Positions 2,983 through 61,570 of a stretch of DNA of 64,000 bases are shown here, in pieces (position 1 is the first letter of the stretch; each line of letters begins with the position of its first letter). This stretch comes from Clostridia bacterium (lineage in GTDB: Bacteria; Bacillota; Clostridia; Peptostreptococcales; JAAYPU01), in NCBI GenBank assembly GCA_016278615.1, contig JADQBM010000006.1:36206-100205 (forward strand). The letters run 5' to 3'. A program made the position numbers and the translations under genes. The notes under the pieces were generated by a model, which was not told the origin of the DNA, did not search any database, and worked only from the letters and a program-made list of their open reading frames with translations.

Positions 2983-3168
2983 TTTATTAAAGATAGATAA
3001 AAGATAATAGATAACAGATAATAGTTGAGGAAGGATTTTGTTGCACAAAATCTCAATTTAACATCATTTAAAATCATTTAACATAATGATAGTTTTGTAT
3101 AACAAAACTCACCATAACTGTTATCTATTATCTGTTATCTGTCATCTATTATCTGTTATCTCTTATCT
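2945..3168. repeat. E1: inverted pair of heptamer-tract/hairpin repeat arms
   Basis: Left arm: AGATAAN tract 2945-3024, AGTTGAGG, hairpin GATTTTGt-tgc-aCAAAATC 3034-3052. Right arm is the reverse complement: hairpin 3091-3109, heptamers 3119-3168. Confidence 0.85.
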
Positions 3169-6704: not shown

Positions 6705-8540
6705 ATGTCAAAATTAAATAATTTAGAAAAAATATTGCCTAAAGTTGAAAAACCAGCAAGATATATCGGAGGAGAAATCAATGCAGTTGTAAAAAAAGAT
6801 GCTGAAATAAAAGCAAGATTTGTATTTGCTTTTCCTGATATTTATGAAATTGGAATGTCTCATTTAGGCATGCAAATATTGTATCATGCACTTAATGCAG
6901 AAAATGATATCTTTTGCGAGCGCGTTTTTGCACCGGCTCAAGATATGGAATCTATTATGAGAGAGGAAAACATCCCTTTGTTTTCTTTGGAAACAAAAAC
7001 GCCACTTATGGATGCAGATATGATCGGCTTTACATTGCAGTATGAACTGAGCTATTCTAATGTTATTAATATGTTAAATTTAGCCAATATTCCATTGATG
7101 TGTGATGAAAGAAAAGAAGCTTTCCCATTTATTTGTGCAGGAGGACCTTGTGCTTTTAACCCAGAGCCTTTGGGCGAGATTATTGATTTTTTTATTTTAG
7201 GTGAAGGGGAAACAGTCAATATAGAAATAATGAAAAGGTATATTCTATGGAAGGAAACCGGCAGAACAAAGTTTGAATTTCTAAAAGAAATTTCATGTAT
7301 ACAAGGTGTTTATATTCCTTCTCTTTATAAACCGCGATATGATGAACATATGAAACTAATAGGTATGGACAAGTTATATGAATGGGCCCCAGAAAAAGTA
7401 ACGAAAAAAATTGAAGGGGACTTGGATGCTGCTTTTTTTCCAGAGAAATTTATTGTTCCTTTTATAGATATTGTTCACAATCGTGCCATGGTTGAGATTC
7501 TCAGAGGGTGTACAAGAGGCTGCAGGTTTTGTCAAGCAGGTGTTATTTATCGTCCTGTTCGAGAGCGTTCGGTAGAAAAGATTGAGGAAATAACCCATCA
7601 ATTAATTAAAAATACTGGATATGAAGAGATGTCCTTGCTTTCTCTAAGCACCAGTGATTATTCAAAGATTGAACCTTTGGTTTCATCTTTGATGGAAAAA
7701 TGCAGAAATGAAAATATATCTTTATCTTTGCCTTCACTAAGGTTAGACTCTTTTTCATTCAAGGTTTTAGATGAAGTGCAAAGTGTCAAGAAATCAGGAT
7801 TAACCTTTGCTCCTGAAGCAGGTACTCAGAGATTAAGAAATGTCATCAATAAAAGCATCACAGAAGAAGATATTTTCAATGGAGCAGAGAATGCTTTTAA
7901 ATTAGGCTGGGGAACGATAAAACTCTATTTTATGATTGGGCTCCCAACGGAAACTTATGACGACTTAGATGGTATAGTAAATATCGCAAAAAGAATCATT
8001 GATATTTACTATAAAATACAAGATAAGAAGAATAGAAAACTTAAGATAACCATTAGTACTTCTAATTTTGTTCCAAAACCTCACACTGCATTTCAATGGT
8101 TTCCCATGGATGATATGGAAACTCTATCATCCAAGCATCAGTATTTGTCCGAAAAGTTTAAAAAAATGAAGCACATTACCTTTAACTACAATGATGTGCG
8201 GACCAGCTTTTTAGAAGCAGTTTTAGCAAGAGGAGACAGAAGGGTTAACGAAGTGTTAATAAAAGCCTGGAAAAGCGGTTGCAAATTTGATGGGTGGCGA
8301 GAGCATTTTGATTTTGATAAGTGGCAGCAAGCATTTAATGATGTAGGGATTGATCCTGGCGTATTTTCATGCGAGAAATGGGACTATGATGATGTACTTC
8401 CTTGGGATCACATAGACGTGGGTGTCACCAAAGAATACCTAATTTCCGAAAATGAAAAGGCATACGAAGAAACATTTACGGATGATTGCAGAAATGGCTG
8501 CACGGACTGCGGTGTTAATAGAATATTTGAGTGTAAATAA
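6705..8540 (+). CDS. radical SAM protein with N-terminal B12-binding-like domain, function unknown (my assignment to TIGR03960 is from memory)
   Basis: CTRGCRFCQAG CxxxCxxC cluster motif, 611 aa, followed by a DUF2344-type partner. Confidence 0.8.
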   Translation: MSKLNNLEKILPKVEKPARYIGGEINAVVKKDAEIKARFVFAFPDIYEIGMSHLGMQILYHALNAENDIFCERVFAPAQDMESIMREENIPLFSLETKTPLMDADMIGFTLQYELSYSNVINMLNLANIPLMCDERKEAFPFICAGGPCAFNPEPLGEIIDFFILGEGETVNIEIMKRYILWKETGRTKFEFLKEISCIQGVYIPSLYKPRYDEHMKLIGMDKLYEWAPEKVTKKIEGDLDAAFFPEKFIVPFIDIVHNRAMVEILRGCTRGCRFCQAGVIYRPVRERSVEKIEEITHQLIKNTGYEEMSLLSLSTSDYSKIEPLVSSLMEKCRNENISLSLPSLRLDSFSFKVLDEVQSVKKSGLTFAPEAGTQRLRNVINKSITEEDIFNGAENAFKLGWGTIKLYFMIGLPTETYDDLDGIVNIAKRIIDIYYKIQDKKNRKLKITISTSNFVPKPHTAFQWFPMDDMETLSSKHQYLSEKFKKMKHITFNYNDVRTSFLEAVLARGDRRVNEVLIKAWKSGCKFDGWREHFDFDKWQQAFNDVGIDPGVFSCEKWDYDDVLPWDHIDVGVTKEYLISENEKAYEETFTDDCRNGCTDCGVNRIFECK

Positions 8541-10248: not shown

Positions 10249-10305
10249 AGAAGATAAAAGATAAAAGATAACAGATAATAGTTAAGGTTGGGTTTATACA
10301 CCTGA
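10249..10305 (+). repeat. E2: solo heptamer-tract arm with a divergent or truncated hairpin part
   Basis: AGAAGATAAAAGATAAAAGATAACAGATAATAGTTAAGG, then TTGGGTTTATACACCTGATTTTT instead of the GATTTTG/CAAAATC hairpin. Confidence 0.75.
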
Positions 10306-30314: not shown

Positions 30315-31517
30315 ATGAAAGTATTTAAGGCAAAAAAAATCGGAACATGTCTACTAAAAAACAGATTAATTCGTTCTGCAACCTTTGAAGGCATGTGTGA
30401 CTCAAATGGCTTTCCCCTACAGGCCTATGAAGAGTTATACACTAAGTTGGTAGCAGGAGGTGTAGGGGGTATTATTACTGGCTTTGCTTATGTTTCTCTA
30501 GAAGGAAAAGCCATGCAACCCGGTCAAGCAGGTATGGATTCCCAGTCAAAAATTCCCTACTTTAAGTCCATCACGGACAATGTCCACAAATATAATAGCA
30601 AAATTTTCATGCAATTGGCCCACACTGGCCGCCAGACCAGAAAAAAGGAAACCAAACAGGATGTTTGGGGCGTATCAAGAAAGAGATCCTTGTATTTTTT
30701 ACAAAGGCCAAAAGTATTAACGTCTTCTGAAATCTATACAATCATAAATCAGTTTGCACAATCCGCCTTATACGCAAAAATGGCGGGTTTTGATGGGGTA
30801 CAGTTACACGCCGCTCATGGATATCTGATTCATCAATTTATTTTACCATCCATTAACAATAGAAGAGACGAATTTGGGATACCAGAAGGTTCCAACATCG
30901 GCACAAGATTCTTAGAATTGGTTATTGACGCCATTAGGATTCAATGCGGAAATGACTTTCCGTTACTTGTAAAAATAAGTGGTGGCGTAGATTATTGTCA
31001 TCCATTTACCCCAGTGCAATTCAAAAACCTTATAGGTTTCTTGGATTCAAAAAAAGTGGATGCCATTGAAATTAGTTATGGGACTATGGATTATGCTCTA
31101 AGTATCTTTAGAGGTGAAATACCTAAGCAGACCATTTTAGAGCATAATCCTATTTATAAAACCAATCATCCTTTTAAAAAAGTAGTCTTTAACGCATTGA
31201 TTTATCCTTTTATGTCATTAAAAATAAAGTCCTTTACACCTCTTTATAATATTGAGTATGCTAAGTTGGCAAAAGAGATTACGAAGATTCCTATTATTTG
31301 TGTTGGCGGAGTTCGAAAAGGCCAAGAAATTATATCTTGTATTGAGAATAACTCTGTTGATTTCATGAGCTTATGCAGACCACTTATTTGCGAACCTGAT
31401 TTTATCGAAAAATTGAAAAAAGATGAAAATTATATTTCAAAATGCACAAATTGCAATGTATGTGCAATTATGTGTGATGCCTTAGAACAGACTAAGTGCT
31501 ATAGGAGGCTACTATGA
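30315..31517 (+). CDS. Old-Yellow-Enzyme-type NADH:flavin oxidoreductase with C-terminal Cys cluster
   Basis: [31 protein letters not shown] motifs; C-terminal [11 protein letters not shown]. Confidence 0.8.
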
Positions 31518-31762
31518 ATTTAGAAGAGCGCATTATCACAACATTAAAAAACAACATGGAACGACTCCAAGAGATAAATATAGAAAGCAAATTAAAAGAA
31601 GATCTTGCATTGGATTCATTTGATATATTGATGGTTATATCTGCATTAGAAGATGAATTTTCAATTACGATCAATGAAGAAGACTTTTCAGAGGTTGTTA
31701 CTGTAGGTGATATCGTAGACAGAATGAGAGCAGTAAATAAGAAAGATAAAGATAAAAGATAA
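31514..31762 (+). CDS. acyl carrier protein; C-terminal KKDKDKR tail encoded by the repeat tract
   Basis: 82 aa, [19 protein letters not shown] phosphopantetheine-Ser context; ATGA overlap with the upstream gene. Confidence 0.8.
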
Positions 31763-31808
31763 TAGTTTAGGATGATTTTGCAACTCTTGTAGCAAAATCT
31801 TCATTTTA
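31739..31808 (+). repeat. E3: solo heptamer-tract/hairpin arm inside the operon
   Basis: AAGAAAGATAAAGATAAAAGATAATAGTTTAGGAT, then GATTTTGC-aactcttgta-GCAAAATC, then TTCATTTT. Confidence 0.85.
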
Positions 31809-31846
31809 AACTTTTTGCTTTGAACCTGATAGTAAAGGAGAAATGT

Positions 31847-33022
31847 ATGGGTTTTGAGAGTTTTTATAAGAGATTTGATGTTGATGAAAGGGTTGCGAAT
31901 GTAGCCGGCTTTAATCCGTATTATATGGAAATCGACTCTGGATTAAATGAAAAGATATGGATGAATGGCAGACAAATCATTAATCTTGCTTCAAATAATT
32001 ACCTTGGCTTAGCAACAGATGAAAGGGTAAAGGAAGCCATTATTTCAGCAGTTGAAAAATATGGCGCATCTTTGTGTGGAACGCCCATATCAACGGGATA
32101 TGTTGATTTGTATAAAAGGCTGGAATACTCATTGTCAAATTTTGTTAGGCTTGAGGATACCATCATACTTCCTTCATGCTATCAAGGAAATAATGGATTA
32201 TTTGTTTCCATTGCAAAAAAGGAAGATCTTATCATTGTTGATCGCTTTGCACATTCCTCATTGATTCAAGGGATTAAGGCTGTTGGCTGTAAGATCAGAC
32301 CTTTTCTACATAATAATTTAGAACATCTTGAAGGTATTTTGAAACGCTCACAAGATTATAAGCAAATCTTTGTTGTTACGGAATCTGTATTCTCAACAGA
32401 TGGGGATATCTCACCCTTTAAGGAAATTATCGATCTATGTGAAAAATACAACGCCTTACCAATCATAGATGATTCCCATGGCATTGGTGTGTTGGGGAAT
32501 ACAGGAAAAGGCATCCTTGAAGAGGAAAACATTATTAACTTCAAAGGCATTTATACCGCTTCCCTTGGTAAGGCCCTGGCCAATTCGGGAGGGATGATAA
32601 GTGGTAAAAAAGAGATTATAAACTACCTGAAATATTACTGTCCTCATTTGGTTTATTCTACTTCACTTACACCCTCAATCTTGGCAGGTATAGAAGCCGT
32701 GTTAAAGATTGTATCCTCAGAATTTGAATCATTAAAAAATAAATTGTATTCAAATAAACAAATTCTATTTGCAAGTCTTATGGAGGCAGGATTTGAAACA
32801 ACTGAGTGTATTGCTCCAATTAATAGCATTAAAACACAGAGCAAAGAAAATACTTTTAAAACAGCAAAAAGCTTTTTTGAGAAGGGCATTCTTTCAACCC
32901 CTTTTATTGAACCCTCTGTTCCTGTAAACCAAGGCTGTATAAGACTCATTGCAGGGGCCAATCTGACTCAGTCTACTATTGAAGAAGCCTGTGAGATTAT
33001 AAAGAGTGTGAGGAAGACATGA
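31847..33022 (+). CDS. PLP-dependent alpha-oxoamine synthase family (Spt/BioF/Kbl-like), divergent
   Basis: NNYLGL, DDSHGIGVLG, PLP-lysine context ASLGKAL; AAAGGAG RBS before ATG 31847. Confidence 0.8.
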   Translation: MGFESFYKRFDVDERVANVAGFNPYYMEIDSGLNEKIWMNGRQIINLASNNYLGLATDERVKEAIISAVEKYGASLCGTPISTGYVDLYKRLEYSLSNFVRLEDTIILPSCYQGNNGLFVSIAKKEDLIIVDRFAHSSLIQGIKAVGCKIRPFLHNNLEHLEGILKRSQDYKQIFVVTESVFSTDGDISPFKEIIDLCEKYNALPIIDDSHGIGVLGNTGKGILEEENIINFKGIYTASLGKALANSGGMISGKKEIINYLKYYCPHLVYSTSLTPSILAGIEAVLKIVSSEFESLKNKLYSNKQILFASLMEAGFETTECIAPINSIKTQSKENTFKTAKSFFEKGILSTPFIEPSVPVNQGCIRLIAGANLTQSTIEEACEIIKSVRKT

Positions 33023-33999
33023 AATATTTTCTTATCTTGAACCCTGGTTCTAAGGGAGGAAAAAGCAGAAAAAAATTCAAAACGATACTGGATATCTTGG
33101 AAGAGAACAATATTTCTTATGATTACAAGATAACCACAACCCTTGAAGATGCCACTGTTTTTTCAGCAGAAGCCAATCAAAAAGGTTATGATGTCATTGT
33201 ATCTGTAGGTGGTGACGGAACGATTAATAGAGTCATCAATGGATTTTTTGATCCTTATGGCAAAAGAATATCCCATTCAAAATTAGGCGTCATCTACACG
33301 GGAACAAGCCCTGATTTCTGCAAAAGCTATCATGTTCCTTTAAAAATCGAAAATGCAATGGGTGTATTGATTTCGGCCAAAAGCAAAAAAATTCAGATTG
33401 GCAAAATAAGTCATGCTTTACATTTTGAAAAAATCTTAGAGGGTCAAGCTTTGCCAATTAATTACCACCCCATGAAAACCAGCTACTTTGCATGCTGTGC
33501 CAATATTGGTATAGGTGCTTCACTTGCTAAGAATGCAAATAGTGGCATCAGAAAGTGGTTGGGGGATTACGGTGGAACCTTTATTTCTCTTATTAAAGCA
33601 TTAAAAAAATACGAAGCTTCAAGTTTTACAGTAACCTTAGATGGAAAAAAGCAAATCCTCCAAAAAGTTTATAATATAGGAGTAGGCCGAACGACTTTTA
33701 TTGCCTCTGGAATAAAAGTTAAAAACAATTTACAACCAGGTGATGGTCTTTTTTATAATCTTATAATTAAAAACATAAGTTTTTTTAATTGCCTTGGTAT
33801 ATTAAAAAAAATATATAGTGGAAAAGATATTATCAATGGACCTATTATTGCATTGAAATATGCAAAAGTCATAGAAATTTACGGGTGCAATAAGAATCCT
33901 GAGTTGGAGTTTGACGGTGATGCAAGTGGTTATCTTCCATGCCTGATAGAATCAACTCGAGACCCATTGGACTTAATTTGCGAGGTGCAAAATGAGTAA
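33019..33999 (+). CDS. DAGK-catalytic-domain lipid kinase (YegS/BmrU-like)
   Basis: ILNPGSKGGK, VSVGGDGTINRVINGF; ATGA overlap with the upstream gene. Confidence 0.8.
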   Translation: MKYFLILNPGSKGGKSRKKFKTILDILEENNISYDYKITTTLEDATVFSAEANQKGYDVIVSVGGDGTINRVINGFFDPYGKRISHSKLGVIYTGTSPDFCKSYHVPLKIENAMGVLISAKSKKIQIGKISHALHFEKILEGQALPINYHPMKTSYFACCANIGIGASLAKNANSGIRKWLGDYGGTFISLIKALKKYEASSFTVTLDGKKQILQKVYNIGVGRTTFIASGIKVKNNLQPGDGLFYNLIIKNISFFNCLGILKKIYSGKDIINGPIIALKYAKVIEIYGCNKNPELEFDGDASGYLPCLIESTRDPLDLICEVQNE

Positions 34000-34999
34000 A
34001 GAGAAAGAAATGATTGAAATCATCAACAAACACATGCCGAAAAGTCCAACACAGTTGAATAAATTGTTTGAATCAGATGCTGAAATCATCGATTTTCAAA
34101 GCAAAAGACTTGCCTATAGCATGGATGAATTTTCCGAAGAAGATTTATTATCAGATGAAGACGCCTATACCCTTGGGTGGAATATGGCAGTGGGGTGTAT
34201 AAGTGATATCTTGGCCAGCGGCGGAAATCCTAAGTATTATGCCCATAGTCTTGCAGTTAATCGCACATGGACAAAGGAATATATTGAAAAGCTTTCAATG
34301 GGAATAGGCAAGGCTCTAGAAGAAGCGGGAATGTCCTTTATTGGGGGAGATTTTAGTATTGCAAAGACTTGGCGATATACAGGCTCCATAATCGGTGAAC
34401 TTATAGGAAATCCCTTATTAAGGCGTGGAGCAAAAGTTGGAGATCTAATATTTATTTCCGGCAGAATAGGCGCTGGAAATATTGATGCCGCTCTTAAGCT
34501 TTATTGGGATAACCCAAGAGACATTAAAATACCTAAACAGTTTAAGAGTCGGTTTAAACTTCGAAAAAATGAGGCGTTATTAATCAAAGAATTTGCTCAT
34601 TGTTGTATAGATACAAGTGATGGCGTTTTAAGTGCACTTAAGGCAGTATCTGACATCAATGAAACTGGCTATAAAGTGAGTTATTTACCCTATAAAAAGA
34701 GGGGCATCTTCCTTGCGAAATTACTAAATCTGCCCAAAGAATTGTTATTTTTTGGGGGATGTGGCGAGTACGAGCTACTTTTTACTATTAGCAAAGAGGC
34801 ATCTGAAGATTTTTTAATTCAATCCAAGAAAAGAAATTTTAAATTTTATAAAATTGGCGAAATAAAAGAAAAAGACATTCAGTTATTGCATACTAAAGAG
34901 AAAGAAATTGATTTAAATTTATATGATTTATGTGCAAGAGACTATGAAAACCCCAAAGATTATTTGAAGGATGCGATTCATTTTTTGCATGTTAAATAA
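33992..34999 (+). CDS. PurM/AIR-synthase-superfamily protein (ThiL-like ATP-dependent enzyme)
   Basis: SDAEIID...YSMDEF...ISDILASGGNP...FIGGD... resembles ThiL/PurM N- and C-domains; 8-nt overlap with the kinase gene. Confidence 0.65.
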   Translation: MSKEKEMIEIINKHMPKSPTQLNKLFESDAEIIDFQSKRLAYSMDEFSEEDLLSDEDAYTLGWNMAVGCISDILASGGNPKYYAHSLAVNRTWTKEYIEKLSMGIGKALEEAGMSFIGGDFSIAKTWRYTGSIIGELIGNPLLRRGAKVGDLIFISGRIGAGNIDAALKLYWDNPRDIKIPKQFKSRFKLRKNEALLIKEFAHCCIDTSDGVLSALKAVSDINETGYKVSYLPYKKRGIFLAKLLNLPKELLFFGGCGEYELLFTISKEASEDFLIQSKKRNFKFYKIGEIKEKDIQLLHTKEKEIDLNLYDLCARDYENPKDYLKDAIHFLHVK

Positions 35000-35016
35000 G
35001 AAAGATGGCGTTTATT

Positions 35017-36273
35017 ATGAAGCGAAGAGTTGTTATTACAGGAATAGGTCCTGCAACAGCTATAGGGATCGGGAAAGAAGAATTATTCCAAAGTGTCTTG
35101 GAAATGAAAACATGCATTTTAAAGATACCAGATTGTTATGAAAAGAATTATACTTTTAAGTCTCGTTATTTTGTTCCCAAGCCTGTGTTTTCCTTAGTGG
35201 ATTATGGTATTCCTAAATCCTCTGAATATATTATGGAGGAGATCTCACGACTTTCAGTTCTGTGTACAAGGTTGGCTCTGGAAGATGCAAAGTTTAAAAT
35301 CAAGAAAAGGGGTCAATTTTTTGAAGTGGTGGATTGCCCAAAGAACTCTATGACGATACTTGGCATAGGGATGAGCAGTCTTCAGACAGCTTTTGATTCT
35401 TATACAGCTCATAATACAGAAAATAGCAAGAATCGTTTTAATCGGATGGTGATTCCCATGTTGATGCCAAACTCAGCATCGTCTTGGGTATCTATTGTAT
35501 ATGGTACAAATGGTTTTAATTATACGGTAAACGCTGCCTGTGCATCTGGAAGTCTGGCAATAGGTGAGGCTTATTCCAATATCCTAAATGGCAAATGTGA
35601 TGTGGCCATAACCGGTGGGGTTGAAGCTCTGGCTGAAAAAGAGGGTGCTGTTATGAGAGGCTTTGACATGCTCACAACTCTTACAAAATCAAAAGATGGC
35701 AAACCTTTACCTTTTTCAAAACAACGAAGCGGATTTTTATTTAACGAGGGCGCAGGATGCGTTCTGATCCTTGAAGAACTCCAAAATGCTCGCAAGAGAG
35801 GCGCTGATATATACGCGGAAATAGTGGGATATGAAAGTTCCAGTGATTCACATCATATTGTTCAGATGGAACCTTCAGGACAAAACATTGCTATGCTCTT
35901 TGAAAAGCTAACTAAGGGAATAAAGATTGATTATTTAAACGCCCATGGAACAGCAACCCTTTCCAATGATGAAATTGAAGCTAAAATCATTCAAGATTTG
36001 TTTGGAGACAAAAGCACCCAACCCACTATAAATTCAACAAAAGGTATTTTAGGACACAGCATCGGTGCAAACGGAGCCATAGAGGCTGCCGTAACAGCTA
36101 TGTCAATAAAAAATGCCTTAATACATGGGAATCTAACAACAGACCCAATGGACAACTTAAATCTTCCCATGACAACCATTGAAGCTAAAATCAAATATGC
36201 TATTTCCGCTTCATATGGCTTTGGGGGACATAATGTCTTATTATTATTGAAGAGGTTTGAAGAAAATGAATAA
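35017..36273 (+). CDS. beta-ketoacyl-ACP synthase (KAS I/II family)
   Basis: MKRRVVITGIG, active-site AACASGS, NAHGTAT and GHSIGANG His motifs. Confidence 0.85.
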   Translation: MKRRVVITGIGPATAIGIGKEELFQSVLEMKTCILKIPDCYEKNYTFKSRYFVPKPVFSLVDYGIPKSSEYIMEEISRLSVLCTRLALEDAKFKIKKRGQFFEVVDCPKNSMTILGIGMSSLQTAFDSYTAHNTENSKNRFNRMVIPMLMPNSASSWVSIVYGTNGFNYTVNAACASGSLAIGEAYSNILNGKCDVAITGGVEALAEKEGAVMRGFDMLTTLTKSKDGKPLPFSKQRSGFLFNEGAGCVLILEELQNARKRGADIYAEIVGYESSSDSHHIVQMEPSGQNIAMLFEKLTKGIKIDYLNAHGTATLSNDEIEAKIIQDLFGDKSTQPTINSTKGILGHSIGANGAIEAAVTAMSIKNALIHGNLTTDPMDNLNLPMTTIEAKIKYAISASYGFGGHNVLLLLKRFEENE

Positions 36274-37297
36274 TGTAATGATTACAGGTGCCACTGGCTT
36301 TATTGGCAGTCACATTGTCCGAATTTTTTGTGAGAATCAGATTCATGTGGGTTGTTTAATGAGAGAAACCAGCAATAGAAAGAACCTAAATGGACTGCCA
36401 ATAGAAATAAAGATTGGCGATATAAGAGAGGGCGAAGGGATAGAAACTGCATTTCAAGGATACGATTGTGTCATTCATAATGCTGCAAAAGCAGAGGACT
36501 GGGGACATTATGATGAATTTTTTCAAACAAATGTGATGGGAACATTAAATGTATTAAGAGCATCTGTAAAAGCAGGTGTTAAGAATATCATTTTAACTGC
36601 TTCTAATTCCGTTTATGGAGAAGAAAACAGTTTTATTGTAAAAGATGAGAATTCACCCTACAAGTCTCACTACAAATATTTCGGAGATGGTGTTTTCCCG
36701 TGCAAATTGAATTATTATCGCGATACCAAGGCCTTGGCAAAAAAAGAAGCCATAAAATTTGCTAAAGAACATGATTTGAACCTTACGATCATAGAGCCTG
36801 TTTGGGTTTATGGCGAAAGGGAATTCAATACTGGGTTTTATGAGTATATTAAGACAGCTGGAACCGGCATTGTGTTTTTGCCAGGATCGAAAAAAAATAA
36901 ATTTCATGTTGTGTATGCAGGGGATCTCGCCAGGGCCTACCTTGCTGCGTATAAGAAACACTTGGTAGGCATCAACTGTATACTTATTGGAAATGAAAAA
37001 GCTGAAAGCATGGACAAAATCTATAGACTGTTTTGCTTAGAAGCTGGAATTAGAAAGCCTTTCAATATCCCAAAGATCCTAGTATATCCAATAGCATTTA
37101 AACTAGAGTTACTCTACACGATATTTCGCGCTAAGAAACCACCCCTTCTAACCCGGGGAAGGGTCAATATGTTTTATGATAATATCGAGTTCTCAGTTAA
37201 AAAAGCAGAGGAACTTCTGGGGTTTACAAACCAATATACTTTAGAGGAAGGAATCAAAAAAACAGTTGCTTGGTATAAGGAGCAGAAGCTAATTTGA
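36266..37297 (+). CDS. NAD-dependent epimerase/dehydratase-family reductase
   Basis: ITGATGFIGSH Rossmann, YYRDTKALAKK (YxxxK); 8-nt overlap with KAS. Confidence 0.8.
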   Translation: MNNVMITGATGFIGSHIVRIFCENQIHVGCLMRETSNRKNLNGLPIEIKIGDIREGEGIETAFQGYDCVIHNAAKAEDWGHYDEFFQTNVMGTLNVLRASVKAGVKNIILTASNSVYGEENSFIVKDENSPYKSHYKYFGDGVFPCKLNYYRDTKALAKKEAIKFAKEHDLNLTIIEPVWVYGEREFNTGFYEYIKTAGTGIVFLPGSKKNKFHVVYAGDLARAYLAAYKKHLVGINCILIGNEKAESMDKIYRLFCLEAGIRKPFNIPKILVYPIAFKLELLYTIFRAKKPPLLTRGRVNMFYDNIEFSVKKAEELLGFTNQYTLEEGIKKTVAWYKEQKLI

Positions 37298-37323
37298 TAC
37301 AAGTGATAGGAAACTGGAAAATG

Positions 37324-37622
37324 AAGATAAAAGATAATAGATAATAGATAACAGTTAAGGATGATTTTGTTCCAAAATCTTCGTTTTAATTTAAAAGAGT
37401 AAGAAGATGCGTAGAGACGACCCTTGCGGTTGTCCGTATGAGATAAAAGAGTATTTGTCATCGCGAGGAGTATAGCGACGTGGCGATCTATCATAAAGCA
37501 AAATAAAGGTAACTGTAGGGGCTGGTCCTGTGCCTGCCCGAACAAGATTCAGGTTTATTATTCAAATGAAGATTTTGTGTAACAAAATCCTTCCTAAACT
37601 ATTATCTGTTATCTATTACCTA
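37324..37622. repeat. E4: inverted pair of heptamer-tract/hairpin arms enclosing a ~170-nt GC-richer cargo (MITE-like)
   Basis: Left arm 37324-37388 (hairpin GATTTTG-ttc-CAAAATC 37363-37379). Right arm 37563-37622 is its reverse complement (hairpin 37571-37589). Interior has several hairpins and no credible ORF. Confidence 0.85.
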
Positions 37623-37636
37623 TAAGGGAGATTATT

Positions 37637-38932
37637 ATGATAAAAACAAATAATGTCACTGGGATTCATAAAAATTTATTTAATTTGAAATTGAAAATCT
37701 TTGTTTTCTTTTATTTCATTCCTGAGTTTATTAAAGGAAATATTTCATTAAAAAGATATACGCTCTTTTTAAAAAGACTTTTACTTTTCCTTGCAAAGAT
37801 GCAACACAATAAATTTGTAAAAATCGGAAGCAAAACTCGAATGAATTTATATGTCCCGGGTTTTGCTTCAAAAGCATTTCTCACGGCCTGTAAGAAATTT
37901 TTACAATTTGAAAATCAAATGCCTTGTACAACGGTTTTAATATCCATTACTTCTTCTTGTACATATCACTGTAGCCATTGTTATCAAAAACTCGATAAAG
38001 GCAAAGATGTGGATTTAAACTTATTGATTCCAATTGTGAAAAAACTTCAAGACAGGGGCATTGCTTTCTTCAATATTGAAGGAGGGGAGCCATTTTTAGT
38101 CTATGACAGATTAAAAAGTATCTGCACATCCATTGATGAGAGATCAGAAATCTGGATAAACTCAACGGGTGTTGGAATTACCATAGAGAGACTAATGGAA
38201 TTGAAAAAAATGAATGTTACTGCTATCATGTTTTCTTTACATAGTTCTCAGCGGGATATTTTTAATGATTTTATGGGGGATGATTCTGCGTGGGATACAC
38301 TTGAATCCGCTATTCATCTATGTCATGAAGCAGGCTTAGGAGTTACCTTTAATTCATGTCTTATGAAAGATGATTTTTACAACGGGAATTTTGAAAAAAT
38401 CATGGAAACTACTAAAAAATATAACGCCTCCTTGGTTCAAATCATAAAGCCAAAGCCTTCCGGCGGATGGCTTGAAAAAGAAGATATAGAATTTACTCAA
38501 ATGGATATAGACGATATTAAGAAAAAGGTTCTTCGATACAATTCCCAGCATAAGTTTAAAGAATACCCTTCGATTTTTGCTCAGATTATTGAAGAGGATA
38601 AAGATGTTTTTGGCTGCACAGCGGGTGGAATAGACAGGTTTTATATCAATGCAAAAGGAGACATTCAGCCATGTGAGTTTCTAAACATATCTTTTGGGAA
38701 CATAAGAGAAGAAGATTTCGAAACCATCTATAATAGAATGAGAAATTCTTTTGAGTGGGGAGGGGATTGCATGATTTGTGAGAAATATGCTAAGGAAGTT
38801 CGTGAAATCTTTAAAGATAATCATTTATCATCCTTACCCCTTTCTTCAACACTATCTGAAAAGATTTATGGTTCATGGGATAGAGGTGACAAGACGGAAT
38901 TGTATGAAAAGCTGGAAGAGATTAAAGGATAG
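37637..38932 (+). CDS. radical SAM enzyme with extra C-terminal Cys motifs
   Basis: CTYHCSHCYQ cluster motif; C-terminal CTAGG...QPCEF and CMICEKY cysteines. Confidence 0.8.
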   Translation: MIKTNNVTGIHKNLFNLKLKIFVFFYFIPEFIKGNISLKRYTLFLKRLLLFLAKMQHNKFVKIGSKTRMNLYVPGFASKAFLTACKKFLQFENQMPCTTVLISITSSCTYHCSHCYQKLDKGKDVDLNLLIPIVKKLQDRGIAFFNIEGGEPFLVYDRLKSICTSIDERSEIWINSTGVGITIERLMELKKMNVTAIMFSLHSSQRDIFNDFMGDDSAWDTLESAIHLCHEAGLGVTFNSCLMKDDFYNGNFEKIMETTKKYNASLVQIIKPKPSGGWLEKEDIEFTQMDIDDIKKKVLRYNSQHKFKEYPSIFAQIIEEDKDVFGCTAGGIDRFYINAKGDIQPCEFLNISFGNIREEDFETIYNRMRNSFEWGGDCMICEKYAKEVREIFKDNHLSSLPLSSTLSEKIYGSWDRGDKTELYEKLEEIKG

Positions 38933-39040
38933 ATATCAGAAAATAGATAACAGATAATAGATAAGGGATAGATAAGAGATAACAGATAATAGATAAGAGT
39001 TGAGGAGGATTTTGCATGAAATAGGCAAAATCTTCTTTTG
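38931..39040 (+). repeat. E5: solo heptamer-tract/hairpin arm
   Basis: ~10 AGATAAN-type units, AGTTGAGG, GATTTTGC-atgaaatag-GCAAAATC (39008-39032), TTCTTTTG. Confidence 0.85.
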
Positions 39041-39580: not shown

Positions 39581-39720
39581 GAAGAAAGATTAAAAAGATA
39601 GATAAAAGATTAAAAAGATAGATAAAAGATAAGAAGATAGATAAGAGAAAAAGATAGATAAGAGATAACAGATAATAGTTAAGGTTGATTTTGCAACAAC
39701 TGCTAGCAAAATCTTCATTG
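39581..39720 (+). repeat. E6: longest solo arm, with a 22-nt higher-order duplication
   Basis: AGATTAAAAAGATAGATAAAAG occurs twice in tandem, then AGATAAN units, AGTTAAGG, GATTTTGC-aacaactgcta-GCAAAATC (39687-39713), TTCATTG. Confidence 0.85.
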
Positions 39721-39734
39721 ATTTATAAGTTCAG

Positions 39735-39951
39735 TGAGGTAGAGTAAAATCTATCTCGTTTTTTTATCTTAAAGATACTCCAGGGACATTCCTTAAAAAG
39801 ATAGACCCTTAAGCGAAAGGTGTGTCCCTTTACCTTTAATTTGAGTCCTTTAATTGAAATTTACTGCAAAACGGGCGCAAACCTGCTAATAAATACATTA
39901 AACATCTCTTACGTGTTGGAACTTAGAATGTATGAGGAACAGGGTGCAAAA
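39735..39951. repeat. X1: mosaic repeat copy (modules A+B)
   Basis: Module A 39735-39838 with 13-bp hairpin AGGGACATTCCTT/AAGGTGTGTCCCT (39781-39828); module B 39858-39951. Confidence 0.8.
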
Positions 39952-40097
39952 GTGGGGGAGATACTTGGTTTAAAGCGAAAAGATATATATCGTTACATTA
40001 TTTTACATTAATTGTTAATTTTATGCTATTATAATATTAAATAATCTTTATTGTCACAACAAATTTGTTGTGATAATATGTATAAAAGAGAGGTAAG

Positions 40098-40439
40098 ATG
40101 AAAATACATGCTTATACTACTAAAGGTGGTAAGAATGAAATATTCGGTTACTTAAATAGTCTACCAAATAAGGAAAAAGCTGAAGGCTATACAATTATTT
40201 CAATGTTAGAAGAAAAAGGTATGGAATTACTTAACATTTTGAATACACGGCAACTTCAAGGTAAGATTTGGGAAATTAAATTCTATAGACATAATAGAAT
40301 AATGTATATTTTAATAGATGAAGAAAATATTTTTTTACTACATGCTTGTAAGAAGCAAAAAAACAAAGCAGAAAAGAAAAATATAAATATAGCCGTTCAA
40401 AGAGCGAAGGAGATTTCACCTACTGTTTCTGCAGAATAA
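40098..40439 (+). CDS. higB: type II toxin, RelE/HigB-like (Gp49/DUF891-type)
   Basis: 113 aa; KIWEIKF...RIMY...LLHACKKQKNK pattern; toxin-first order with an XRE antitoxin gene downstream. Confidence 0.7.
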   Translation: MKIHAYTTKGGKNEIFGYLNSLPNKEKAEGYTIISMLEEKGMELLNILNTRQLQGKIWEIKFYRHNRIMYILIDEENIFLLHACKKQKNKAEKKNINIAVQRAKEISPTVSAE

Positions 40440-40476
40440 GTCCATGAGTAAACATGTAAGGAAAGGAGAAAAACAA

Positions 40477-40770
40477 ATGCCTTTTGAGCGTATTAATATT
40501 AAAGAATCCATTTCCCAGGAATGTGGAAAGAATGAAGAGTTCAGAGAAGCTTACAATGAAATGATGGAAGAATATAAATTAATTAGTTATGTGGTAAAAG
40601 CTAGAAAAGCAAAAGGATTAACCCAAGAAGCCTTAGCAAAAGCAATCGGTGTTAAACAACAAGAAATTTCCAGATTCGAGAATAGAAAACATATGCCGAC
40701 TTTATCTAATTTAACAAAAATTTTAGATGGTTTAGATTTGCAATTAAGCATTACTCCTAAAAAAAGATAG
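40477..40770 (+). CDS. higA: XRE-family HTH antitoxin (HigA-like)
   Basis: LTQEALAKAIGVKQQEISRFENRK HTH; AAAGGAG RBS before ATG 40477. Confidence 0.75.
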   Translation: MPFERINIKESISQECGKNEEFREAYNEMMEEYKLISYVVKARKAKGLTQEALAKAIGVKQQEISRFENRKHMPTLSNLTKILDGLDLQLSITPKKR

Positions 40771-40807
40771 TGTTTTGTAAAACAAAATAAGAAACGTTGC
40801 TTTTCTT

Positions 40808-41181
40808 GAGGTGGGTTAAAAATCTATCTCATTTTTTTATCTTAAGGATCGCCCAGGGACATTCCTTGGAAAGATAGACCCTTAAGCGAAAGGTGTGTCC
40901 CTGTACCTTAAATCTCTTCTTGTTTTGCAAACGAACCCTTAAGATAAGGTTAAGCTTCAGCATAGACGCGGTGCGCTAAGTCCTTGCAAATTGTGATGTA
41001 GGGACCGGTTCTGTAGTAAATAAGATACCCTAGGGACATTCCTTAGAAAGATAGACCTCTAAGGGAAAGGTGTGTCCCTTTACCTTTATATTTACTGCAA
41101 AACAAGCGCAAACCTGCTAATAAATACATTGAACATCTCTTACGTATTGAAACTTAAAATGTATGAGAACAGGGTGCAAAA
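40808..41181. repeat. X2: mosaic repeat copy (modules A+C+A'+B)
   Basis: A 40808-40910, C 40914-41021, partial A 41024-41086 inserted in the C/B hairpin loop, B 41090-41181. Confidence 0.8.
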
Positions 41182-41292
41182 TGAAAAGCAAGAATACTTA
41201 AGAGAGGTAGCCCCCAGGCATTCTAAATCAACTTTTGCACACAAAATAGTGAGTTGGATGTAATAGTTCAAGGGGGAGACGTTCAATCTATT

Positions 41293-41516
41293 TCTTCTTG
41301 TTTTGCAAACGAACCCTTAAGGTAGGGTTAAGCTTCAGCATAGACGCGGTGCGCTAAATCCTTTCAACATATGATGTAGGGACCGGTTTTGCAGTAAATG
41401 ATATTTAAGTTCTTTAAAGGAAATTTACTGCAAAACAGATGCAAACCTGCGAATAAATAGATTAAACATCTCTTACGTATTGGAACTTAGAATGTATTAG
41501 AAACAGGGTGCAAAAG
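41293..41516. repeat. X3: mosaic repeat copy (modules C+B), the cleanest ~225-nt unit
   Basis: C 41293-41399, B 41423-41516. 14-bp IR GTTTTGCAGTAAAT/ATTTACTGCAAAAC; possible closing helix TTTTGCA (41301-07)/TGCAAAA (41509-15). Confidence 0.8.
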
Positions 41517-41563
41517 TTAAATTTAAACAAAAAGATTATAGGATGAACCTATAATCTTTTTCT

Positions 41564-41606
41564 TGGTGCCGAAGGCGGGACTTGAAGACGGGCGGCCGTC
41601 TGCCGA
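41564..41606 (-). pseudogene. tRNA-Leu 3'-end fragment (internally deleted copy)
   Basis: TGGTGCCGAAGGCGGGACTTGAA is identical to the first 23 nt of the intact tRNA at 41750; preceded by a similar terminator hairpin. Confidence 0.6.
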
Positions 41607-41749
41607 TCTTTTGTGTCATGTTTGTATTGATGATGTTGTTTATTTGATTTCTATATAGCATTTGAAAGTGTCCGCTTCTTTACGCGGGTTCTTCGCACCC
41701 ACCTTTCAGACAATTAAAAAATCATAGGATAACCCTATGATTTTTTAAT

Positions 41750-41836
41750 TGGTGCCGAAGGCGGGACTTGAACCCGCACGTTGTTACCAACACTGGATTT
41801 TGAGTCCAGCGCGTCTGCCAATTCCACCACTTCGGC
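41750..41836 (-). tRNA. tRNA-Leu (anticodon CAA), CCA encoded
   Basis: Reverse complement reads GCCGAAGTGGTGGAATTGGCAGACGCGCTGGACTCAAAATCCAG...GCGGGTTCAAGTCCCGCCTTCGGCACCA; anticodon loop CTCAAAA. Confidence 0.9.
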
Positions 41837-45158: not shown

Positions 45159-45959
45159 ATGGAACATATTAGAATAGGGATTGCTGACGATAATAATGAT
45201 TTCTGTGATATTTTAACAGAATTCTTGGATCGTCAGCAGGAAATTGAAGTAATTTGGACTGCAAAAGATGGGTTAAATGCGGTGGATATGATATCTGAAA
45301 ATGTACCAGATGTATTAATTCTGGATATTATCATGCCACATTTGGATGGACTTGGTGTTCTGGAGAAAATAGCAACGATGAATATAGAACAAGATTTAAA
45401 GGTAATTGTTCTATCTGCAGTAGGACAAGAATACATAACCCACAAAGCAATCAATATGGGTGCTGATTATTACATTGTTAAACCCTTTGATTTTAACACT
45501 CTTACCAAACGAATTTATCAATTAGCGGGAAAGGCAGATGGGCTCAGCCAGATTAATAAAAAGAATATATCAAAGTCATTATTTAAGTCACTTGGCAATG
45601 ATTTACCAGATCTTGAAACAGACATTACAAGTGTCATTCATGAAGTAGGGGTCCCAGCACATATAAAAGGTTACCAATACTTAAGAGAAGCGATTACCCT
45701 TGTTGTTGGAAATATTGAATTATTAAGTGCTGTTACTAAGGAATTATATCCATCTATTGCTAAAAAATATAATACCACCCCAAGTAGGGTCGAACGAGCT
45801 ATCCGTCATGCAATAGAAGTGGCGTGGAATAGAGGAAAAATTGATACCATTAATTCTTTATTTGGTTATACGGTTCATAACGATAAAGGCAAACCAACTA
45901 ACAGTGAGTTCATAGCCATTATAGCGGATAAATTGAGACTGGAAAGAAAAGCTGTTTAA
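45159..45959 (+). CDS. spo0A: sporulation master regulator Spo0A
   Basis: REC domain ([14 protein letters not shown]) plus Spo0A-specific C-domain [33 protein letters not shown]. Confidence 0.95.
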
Positions 45960-61074: not shown

Positions 61075-61199
61075 ATTTCTCAGTATTAAAAGCAAAACAA
61101 TGCAATAATCCTCATAGCTATTGACATATCTACACCTATTTATTATAATTTCTTTAGTCTATACATATAATAAGACAATGAAAAAGAAAAGTATAATAT

Positions 61200-61570
61200 A
61201 ACTTGTTCTCAAGAGAGAAAGATGTATGGTGAAAGTCTTTTGCTCAGGTATATTAGAAGCAGCTTTTGAGTCTTTTTCCTGAAAAAGCAGTAGAAATCTA
61301 CAAATACAAGATTTGGTCGGCTAAGTAATCTAAATCAAAGATTTAGACTACGCGACATCTGACCTACGACACAATCAAAGATTGTTGTTAGGTCATTATG
61401 ATTTCATTGCATAAGTTCGCCATCAATTCATTATCATGAACTGGGCGAGCTAATATTAGGGAAAAACGGTTTCCGCCGTTATTGGATTAAGTGATCATCA
61501 TTTTTGATGGTAAGTAGGGTGGTACCGCGATACACTCGTCCCTATATTCCTTTAGAGGCGGGTTTTTTTA
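61200..61570 (+). promoter_or_regulatory. T-box riboswitch leader of alaS
   Basis: AGAGAG/GGTGAAAG stem I elements (61210-61245), T-box core GGGTGGTACCGCG at 61517-61529, terminator-like CTCGTCCCT..AGAGGCGGG plus T7 (61535-61569); GAAGCAG context offers a GCA (Ala) specifier. Confidence 0.85.

Follow-up and report, generated by a model that had tools for sequence, protein, structure and literature searches.

What kind of DNA separates the last two genes of a conserved biosynthetic operon in a clostridial genome, where two of four related operons have a spacer of only 14-15 nt? The locus lies in a stretch of 64,000 nt from a Clostridia bacterium (positions 36,206 to 100,205 of contig JADQBM010000006.1, assembly GCA_016278615.1), referred to here as the window, and the element in question, E4, fills the spacer between the genes for an NAD epimerase/reductase and a radical SAM/SPASM protein. 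An original prediction, made from the sequence alone, had read positions 37324-37622 as a pair of near-perfect inverted arms, akin to the ends of a miniature inverted-repeat transposable element (MITE), that delivered either a passenger small RNA or a remnant of foreign sequence. The inverted arms, the GC-richer interior, three hairpins, and an open reading frame (ORF) of 123 codons that it described are all found where it placed them. With a probability of roughly two in three, we interpret E4 as a non-coding 327-nt mosaic of small palindromic repeats, similar to a bacterial interspersed mosaic element (BIME), in which relic repetitive extragenic palindromes (REPs) sit within a palindromic pair of another repeat, the whole being inserted between the epimerase stop codon and the ribosome-binding site (RBS) of the radical SAM gene. 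E4 is selfish or structural DNA of an ordinary kind, and not a new RNA gene.

Comparison with related operons defines E4 as an insertion. The conserved operon (30315-38932) has eight genes, encoding an old yellow enzyme (OYE) flavoprotein, an acyl carrier protein (ACP), a class I/II aminotransferase, a diacylglycerol kinase (DAGK)-like kinase, an AIR-synthase-like protein, a ketosynthase, the NAD epimerase/reductase, and the radical SAM/SPASM protein, a gene set that suggests a lipid or amino-lipid pathway. The gene order is kept in contigs from four relatives (L168-L171), and the radical SAM homologues, which are 69-74% identical, have source names in Clostridia (Desulfosporosinus, Peptococcaceae, Petroclostridium) and Omnitrophota. 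From the epimerase stop codon to the radical SAM ATG there are 14 nt in L168 (TGA AGGGAGGCGAGACT ATG) and a similarly short 15 nt in L170. The spacer is 52 nt in L171 (5949-6000), from an Anaerovorax-like metagenome-assembled genome (MAG), where it carries a rudimentary GATAA tract, AAGATAAAGGATAACAG, and 124 nt in L169 (5877-6000), where it holds a different hairpin-rich insert. In the window, the same distance is 339 nt and the RBS is kept (AAGGGAGATTATTATG). Because the spacer measures 14, 15, 52, and 124 nt in the four relatives and 339 nt here, with the RBS retained, E4 is an insertion into the operon, as the original prediction held. The comparison with loci lacking the insertion also fixes its limits at 37298-37624, a span with no strand assigned, between the epimerase TGA (37295-37297) and the retained RBS AGGGAG. 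This RBS, which together with the ATG at 37637 occupies 37625-37639 on the plus strand, lies 3 nt past the right arm and is homologous to the RBS of L168. A target-site duplication, which the same comparison might have revealed, is absent from the junctions TTTGA/TACAAG and CCTATA/AGGGAG when they are set against the empty site TGA/AGGGAGG. Judging from the inserts in L169 and L171, the epimerase-to-radical-SAM junction seems to receive insertions repeatedly or to tolerate them readily.

Within E4, base composition and folding separate the interior from the arms. The interior is GC-richer than its surroundings, as predicted, with 44% GC compared with 22-25% in the arms and 34% in the window, and values taken over a sliding 100 nt reach 0.46-0.47 there and 0.20-0.30 around it, against 0.34 for the window. 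Within the interior, the three hairpin units described below have 63% GC and the spacers between them 26%. The three predicted hairpins, GACGACC/GGTTGTC, ATCGC..GCGAT, and GGGC(T)GG/CC(T)GCCC, are each part of one unit. As a whole, E4 folds far better than shuffled sequences (z of -5.7 and -7.1) because the arms pair with each other, in blocks 37332-37368/37585-37621 (37 nt, 81% complementary) and 37373-37390/37560-37577 (18 nt, 89%). The interior alone folds no better than shuffles (z of -1.3 and -0.06). When 37324-37390 is aligned globally with the reverse complement of 37560-37622, 52 of 69 columns are identical, and the core reaches 84%. The arms are therefore inverted as described, but at 75-84% alike they are not near-perfect. 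In assembled Logan contigs (SRR24974067), one contig (L172) ends in the left arm (~37368) and another (L001) starts inside the third hairpin unit (37519), leaving ~150 nt of the interior joined to neither, which may reflect the repeats or a strain variant.

Each arm is one unit of a local, lineage-specific repeat family. A unit of this family has four parts: a variable number of tandem AGATAAN heptamers, a head GATAAYAGTTAAGG, a hairpin GATTTTG-(3-13 nt loop)-CAAAATC, and, in aligned copies, a tail TTCATTT. The left arm (37324-37390, plus strand) consists of a GATAA-heptamer tract at 37324-37352, the head GATAACAGTTAAGG at 37347-37360, the hairpin GATTTTG-TTC-CAAAATC at 37363-37379, and the tail TTCGTTTTAAT. 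The right arm (37560-37622, minus strand) is an inverted unit that reads, on its own strand, as tract, GATAATAGTTTAGG, hairpin GGATTTTG-TTACA-CAAAATC, and TTCATTTGAAT. Allowing at most two mismatches, the arm core AGATAACAGTTAAGG matches the window nine times, where 0.26 matches would be expected, and about eight copies of the unit can be placed, at ~3016 (plus), 3112 (minus), 10273 (degenerate), 31757, 37346 (plus), 37593 (minus), 38991, and 39670. Most are single, and these solo units have the same orientation as the flanking genes and start at or just past a stop codon. One occupies the spacer between the ACP and aminotransferase genes (31742-31806, plus strand), a second lies directly past the radical SAM stop codon (38942-39040, plus strand), and a third, with a long tract, directly past the stop codon of an AhpC/TSA-family gene (39590-39722, plus strand). 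The degenerate unit upstream of obg (10250-10290, plus strand) keeps its tract and head and is missing the hairpin. In the ACP gene (31514-31806), the reading frame enters the GATAA tract, gains ~6 codons, and ends in ...NKKDKDKR* at a TAA of the tract, so that the protein has 82 residues compared with 76 in relatives and the spacer to the aminotransferase gene has 57 nt compared with 10-17 nt. As can be read off the sequence, the 7-nt period of the tract means that three heptamers put a stop codon in every plus-strand frame.

The family also forms palindromic pairs without any GC-rich insert. In a second inverted pair at 2993-3150 (plus unit 2993-3062, minus unit 3078-3150), the hairpins are only ~40 nt apart and GC-rich units are absent. 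When the GC-rich block 37411-37539 is subtracted from the interior of E4, 20 + 20 nt remain, which equals the ~40-nt gap of that pair. Beyond the window, scans with the arm pattern gave six matches in genomes, four in metagenomes, and one in viral contigs, of which three are true units: two in the GTDB MAG "Anaerovorax odorimutans" BM5_bin.11 (L011 and L015, the latter with a partial inverted pair) and one in a metagenome contig (L016). The remaining matches have neither tract nor hairpin, and a single identical stretch accounts for at least three of these (L010, L017, L173). At 5150-5215 of L011, an arm-type hairpin is followed by a second type of heptamer tract, (TAATCAC/TAACCAC)n.

These comparisons bear directly on the idea that E4 is a MITE, in which the arms would be the terminal inverted repeats of one non-autonomous transposon that carried a GC-rich passenger into the operon in a single event. 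The interior is indeed flanked by inverted arms, two other inverted pairs of arm units exist (2993-3150 in the window and, in part, L015), and the empty sites of the relatives fit insertion as a single block. However, the copy at 3016 resembles the right arm more closely (95.9% over 49 nt, 89% in the core) than the left arm does (84% in the core), which indicates that the arms are family members and not matched transposon ends. Most arm units are also solo and co-oriented with genes, there is no target-site duplication at 37298/37624, and neither the element nor its interior has a second copy: BLAST found none of the interior in the window, an exact 25-mer from it had no match in the genome contig collection, and no copy appeared in the protein collections searched. 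In addition, a Pfam scan of 29 real ORFs in the window and one spurious ORF detected no Y1_Tnp domain, REP-associated tyrosine transposase (RAYT), or transposase of another kind. Delivery by a MITE, as originally proposed, is thus unlikely.

The interior is instead made of three co-oriented plus-strand units, U1, X, and U3, separated by gaps of 21 and 26 nt. REPs are divided into two superfamilies, GTAG-tagged and CGTC-tagged (Di Nocera, De Gregorio & Rocco, 2013, PMC3733652), and by their sequences the three units fit these superfamilies. U1 (37411-37435, plus strand; GTAGAGACGACCCTTGCGGTTGTCC) is a GTAG-tagged REP-type hairpin that matches its family consensus GTAGGGGCGACCCTTGCGGTCGCCC at 21 of 25 positions. 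Among its four differences, G7>A is compensated by C23>T, so that these positions still pair, and C21>T produces a G-T pair. U3 (37515-37539, plus strand; GTAGGGGCTGGTCCTGTGCCTGCCC), also a GTAG-tagged REP-type hairpin, differs from its consensus GTAGGGGCAGGTCTTGTGCCTGCCC at two positions and is identical at the other 23 of 25. Both consensus sequences leave the GTAG tag unpaired and fold, as DNA, into a stem of 8 bp with a loop of 5 nt, with z of -4.7 (U1) and -3.8 (U3). In E4, both tags are likewise unpaired, the stem of U1 is 7 bp, and that of U3 is 4+3 bp with one T-T mismatch, with DNA folding energies of -3.9 kcal/mol for U1 (consensus -10.3) and -5.9 kcal/mol for U3 (consensus -8.5). 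X (37457-37488, plus strand; GTCATCGCGAGGAGTATAGCGACGTGGCGATC, preceded by T and followed by TA) is a TGTC-tagged motif. No inverted partner of U1, X, or U3 occurs inside E4, and the rest of the interior showed no likeness to other sequence in the window BLAST and the scans.

The families of these units were found by scanning viral contigs with patterns derived from the interior. Each family is independent, with sharp borders and random flanks, in many unrelated viral contigs (36-74% GC) and in plasmids. Expected chance matches of the units in the window range from 1e-5 to 7e-9, and shuffled sequences gave none. For the U1 family, 26 viral loci hold 34 copies, and by chance 1.6e-6 matches would be expected in the window. 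The U3 family has nine copies in six viral loci, often followed by an inverted GGGCAACCACAAGGGTTGCCCCTAC, and its pattern, at up to three mismatches, finds E4 as the sole match in the window and nothing in 100 shuffles (expectation 7e-9). The X family, (C/T)GTCATTGCGAGGAGCGaAGCGACGnrGCAATC(C/T), occurs in at least 120 viral loci, and positions outside the search pattern are conserved too. A covariance model built on 84 distinct viral copies scores X at 49.9 bits (E 9e-11, 37455-37490), compared with 10.4 bits for the runner-up in the window. The pair ATYGC/GCRAT covaries in this family (T-A 137, C-G 7, other 4), and the E4 copy has the C-G form. Among 133 copies, GTC is preceded by T in 83, by C in 42, and by G in 8, and the tail is often CCA, otherwise CTC, CCG, or others, with CTA in E4. 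About one-third of X copies have an inverted partner ending in ...CTCGCAATGAC, with the tags outward, whereas X in E4 is solo. The motif is also found on plasmids of Methylosinus, Methylocystis, Halomonas, Calothrix, and Aulosira and in human-faecal phage contigs. Four X copies in one viral contig (L027) have a conserved upstream sequence in common, TTCTTTAG(C/T)CCT.

The arrangement of the units also has parallels. A GTAG-tagged unit followed 20-60 nt later by a co-oriented X recurs in unrelated contigs (L092, L108, L094, L052, and others), and elsewhere the unit families occur as singles, inverted doublets, clusters, and tandem arrays. At 6845-7110 of one contig (L149), six GTAG-tagged hairpins with the same orientation follow each other every ~47 nt, a distance made up of the unit and a conserved spacer, and hairpin clusters that alternate in orientation occur at 1953-2131 of the same contig and in L146. 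In a cultured member of the Clostridia, Vescimonas fastidiosa (Oscillospiraceae), U1 is present at 40 or more places on the 861-kb replicon pMM35_01; a 24-kb sample of this replicon (60% GC) contains eight U1 copies and many other GTAG- and CGTC-tagged hairpins. Because U1 and other tagged hairpins are so abundant there, tagged REPs are native to some Bacillota. Literature searches with the unit sequences or the peptides they would encode gave nothing useful. As far as sequence comparison reaches, we regard the identities of the units, their family membership, and the status of E4 as an insertion as established.

The wide distribution of these families raises a second alternative, that E4 or its GC-rich core was captured from foreign DNA, for example a phage with REP clusters, by recombination or break repair at a fragile palindrome and without dedicated transposition. 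The original prediction was correct insofar as the GC-rich interior is foreign-looking non-coding repeat DNA. Viral contigs, among them low-GC contigs and phage contigs from human faeces, commonly carry the U1, X, and U3 families, the three units are isolated in this region of the genome, and long palindromes are prone to breaks (PMC3733652). Against capture, the spacers between the units look like host DNA (26% GC) and carry GATAA-like words, and the searches made found no donor with the order U1-X-U3 and its spacers. Searching the interior with blastn returned no plasmid match and three short, marginal phage matches (E 0.05-0.6), two of them overlapping X. On balance, we consider capture improbable.

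A still less plausible explanation, to which we give very little weight, is that the interior encodes a small RNA, or a leader that regulates the radical SAM gene in cis, with the hairpins as its structure. The hairpins are partly maintained, as seen in the G7>A and C23>T pair and the G-T change of U1 and the C-G variant of the X pair, and in viral contigs (L021, L024, L034, L042, L043) X often lies 5-15 nt before an RBS and ATG, co-oriented with the downstream gene. However, Rfam covariance models gave nothing relevant in the window or in E4, either at the gathering threshold or at E up to 10, a tRNA/tmRNA scan found nothing inside E4, and a promoter and terminator scan gave signals at background only. 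The interior folds no better than shuffles, and it resolves into three REP-type units. The small RNA that had been proposed is therefore not supported, and the search proposed for its homologues by BLASTN and covariance models yielded no whole-interior copy. Because all four relatives with the operon lack the interior, the radical SAM gene does not require it, and a riboswitch or leader is rejected. The last possibility, a degraded protein-coding gene, is effectively refuted: a 123-aa minus-strand ORF (37174-37545) does overlap the interior, but, as the original prediction had judged, it is not credible, since it crosses one arm into the epimerase gene, has no Pfam match, and in its interior part (a spurious 52-aa ORF) shares no words with any protein and has no homologue in a protein search, while the relatives have no gene at this position, and repeat units and AT-rich spacers account for the sequence fully.

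Taking E4 as a BIME-like mosaic, its history can be outlined tentatively. A palindromic pair of arm units resembling 2993-3150 would have come first. REP units, or a cluster of them, may then have entered the loop of this pair, which would be prone to becoming single-stranded, by analogy with REPs nested in palindromes elsewhere. Mobilization could have been carried out by a hairpin-recognizing Y1 transposase of the RAYT or IS200 type supplied in trans; a hairpin-recognizing RAYT as the mobilizer of REPs is itself a hypothesis in work on REPs and RAYTs (Nunvar, 2010, PMC2817692; Bertels & Rainey, 2011, PMC3116915), and Group 1 RAYTs have been reported from Clostridia (PMC5581495). Since then, U1, X, and U3 would have drifted toward AT and become immobile relics. 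GC-to-AT changes make up six of the nine differences between the E4 units and their consensus sequences; together with the weakened hairpins and the isolation of the units, this speaks for old, inactive copies. In the operon mRNA, pairing of the arms would give a ~60-bp stem that ends 3 nt before the RBS. A likely consequence is that the tight stop/start coupling of the relatives would be lost, and the stem might serve as a site for a double-strand-specific RNase, making E4 a possible site of mRNA processing or of control over mRNA stability and not an RNA gene in its own right.

Several points weigh against this interpretation. Each REP unit has a single copy in the 64-kb window; neither the rest of the window nor ~63 kb of related loci contains U1, X, U3, or another GC-rich hairpin with a tag, so that the window does not display the high copy number that characterizes REPs. 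The transposase expected of such a system is missing from the window ORFs scanned with Pfam. All three units point one way, and same-direction REP dimers are rare (PMC3733652). In X, a 5-bp stem encloses an 18-nt loop, compared with stems of 8-9 bp and loops of 4-5 nt in the named CGTC families, and the fold of X is not significant. The contrast between units of 63% GC and spacers of 26% GC has to be explained, either by separate insertions or by selection acting on the hairpins. Finally, the order of events, arms and then REPs, and any effect at the level of RNA are themselves inferred.

A more speculative elaboration, which we think has little chance of being right, would make the GATAA-heptamer/hairpin unit a still-active, strand-specific miniature element of an Anaerovoracaceae-like lineage that inserts at operon stop codons and brings stops in all three frames. 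Its palindromic pairs would act as landing pads for tagged REPs such as U1, X, and U3 moving between distant hosts on phages, and E4 would be the fossil trace of such movement across lineages, left in a low-GC genome of the Clostridia.

Other repeats occur downstream of the operon. Three further repeat modules, none with an Rfam match, lie at 39746-41520. The first, of 95 nt with a GGGACA...TGTCCC hairpin, has copies at 39746, 40819, and 40996, and also occurs inverted beside an arm-type unit in the Anaerovorax-like MAG (L011, 5033-5083). The second and third, both of 115 nt, have copies at 39839, 41070, and 41403 and at 40912 and 41290, respectively. Farther on, the 3' end of tRNA-Leu(CAA) and an upstream hairpin are duplicated (41530-41586 and 41716-41772, 86% over 57 nt, 186 nt apart), with a Gp49-like toxin/HTH antitoxin pair nearby (40098-40770); the duplication looks like the scar of an element that integrated at the tRNA. 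A T-box leader (61169-61546, 119.5 bits) and a Spo0A gene (45159-45959) both fit a spore-forming, Clostridia-like member of the Bacillota.

Reading E4 in this way removes a candidate small RNA or cargo-carrying MITE from the biosynthetic operon and accounts for it by a mosaic of repeats of familiar types. GTAG- and CGTC/TGTC-tagged REPs, catalogued mainly in Proteobacteria, Cyanobacteria, Chloroflexi, and PVC bacteria, are thereby found also in Clostridia, where they are abundant in Vescimonas and present as relics in this genome, and they are widespread too in contigs classed as viral. Beside them, an undescribed local repeat, the GATAA-heptamer tract with its hairpin, has colonized operon spacers at stop codons. 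The replacement of a 14-nt coupled junction by a 339-nt structured spacer could alter expression of the radical SAM gene relative to the genes upstream.

Among known systems, MITEs are similar to E4 in being short and non-coding, with inverted ends, and present or absent between relatives. They differ from it in that E4 has no target-site duplication, unmatched ends, an unrepeated interior, and no parent insertion sequence. The small dispersed repeats (SDRs) of heterocystous cyanobacteria, attributed to Elhai et al. in 2008 (Genome Res 18:1484, as cited in PMC4390886), are reportedly mobile palindromic modules of ~21-27 nt that insert precisely into other repeats. Both systems consist of very small palindromic modules, in different hosts and apparently with different sequences.

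The REP superfamilies offer the nearest counterparts. GTAG-tagged REPs have an unpaired GTAG followed by a 6-13 bp stem (PMC3733652), and U1 and U3 likewise begin with an unpaired GTAG at the 5' end, before a GC-rich stem (7-8 bp) that closes a loop of 5 nt. REPs of both superfamilies occur as singles, as head-head or tail-tail dimers, and in groups, mostly 3' of ORFs and between co-directional genes (PMC3733652). U1 and U3 are likewise intergenic between co-directional genes, and their families recur with sharp borders and unrelated flanks. They differ from typical members in having one worn copy each in the window and a low-GC, Clostridia-like host; Firmicutes/Bacillota go unmentioned in the 2013 survey (PMC3733652). 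In CGTC-tagged REPs, the tag is often TGTC and can be CCTC, the stem begins with AT, and the tail is close to CCA (PMC3733652). X shares the (C/T)GTC tag (T-GTC-AT) and a stem starting with AT; its short tail is CTA, where other copies in its family often have CCA. Because it has a 5-bp stem, a conserved 18-nt interior, and no significant fold, and is conserved mainly in sequence, X appears to be CGTC/TGTC-tag-like and to fall outside the four named CGTC families. No transposase is known for CGTC-type units (PMC3733652). E4 is also distinct from the REP doublets called REPINs, with U1, X, and U3 all on the plus strand instead of two inverted REPs in one hairpin.

At the level of the whole element, E4 resembles BIMEs and REP clusters in that a single intergenic spacer holds small palindromic units of several kinds as a mosaic, whereas E. 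coli BIMEs alternate in orientation with defined linkers and the E4 units are co-oriented. Some REP dimers are nested in long palindromes, as in GTAG-15 of A. variabilis and CGTC-1 of H. neapolitanus (PMC3733652). E4 shares this architecture, with GC-rich REPs central in a longer AT-rich palindrome, and departs from it in that its palindrome is built from two copies of an independent repeat that is also found singly.

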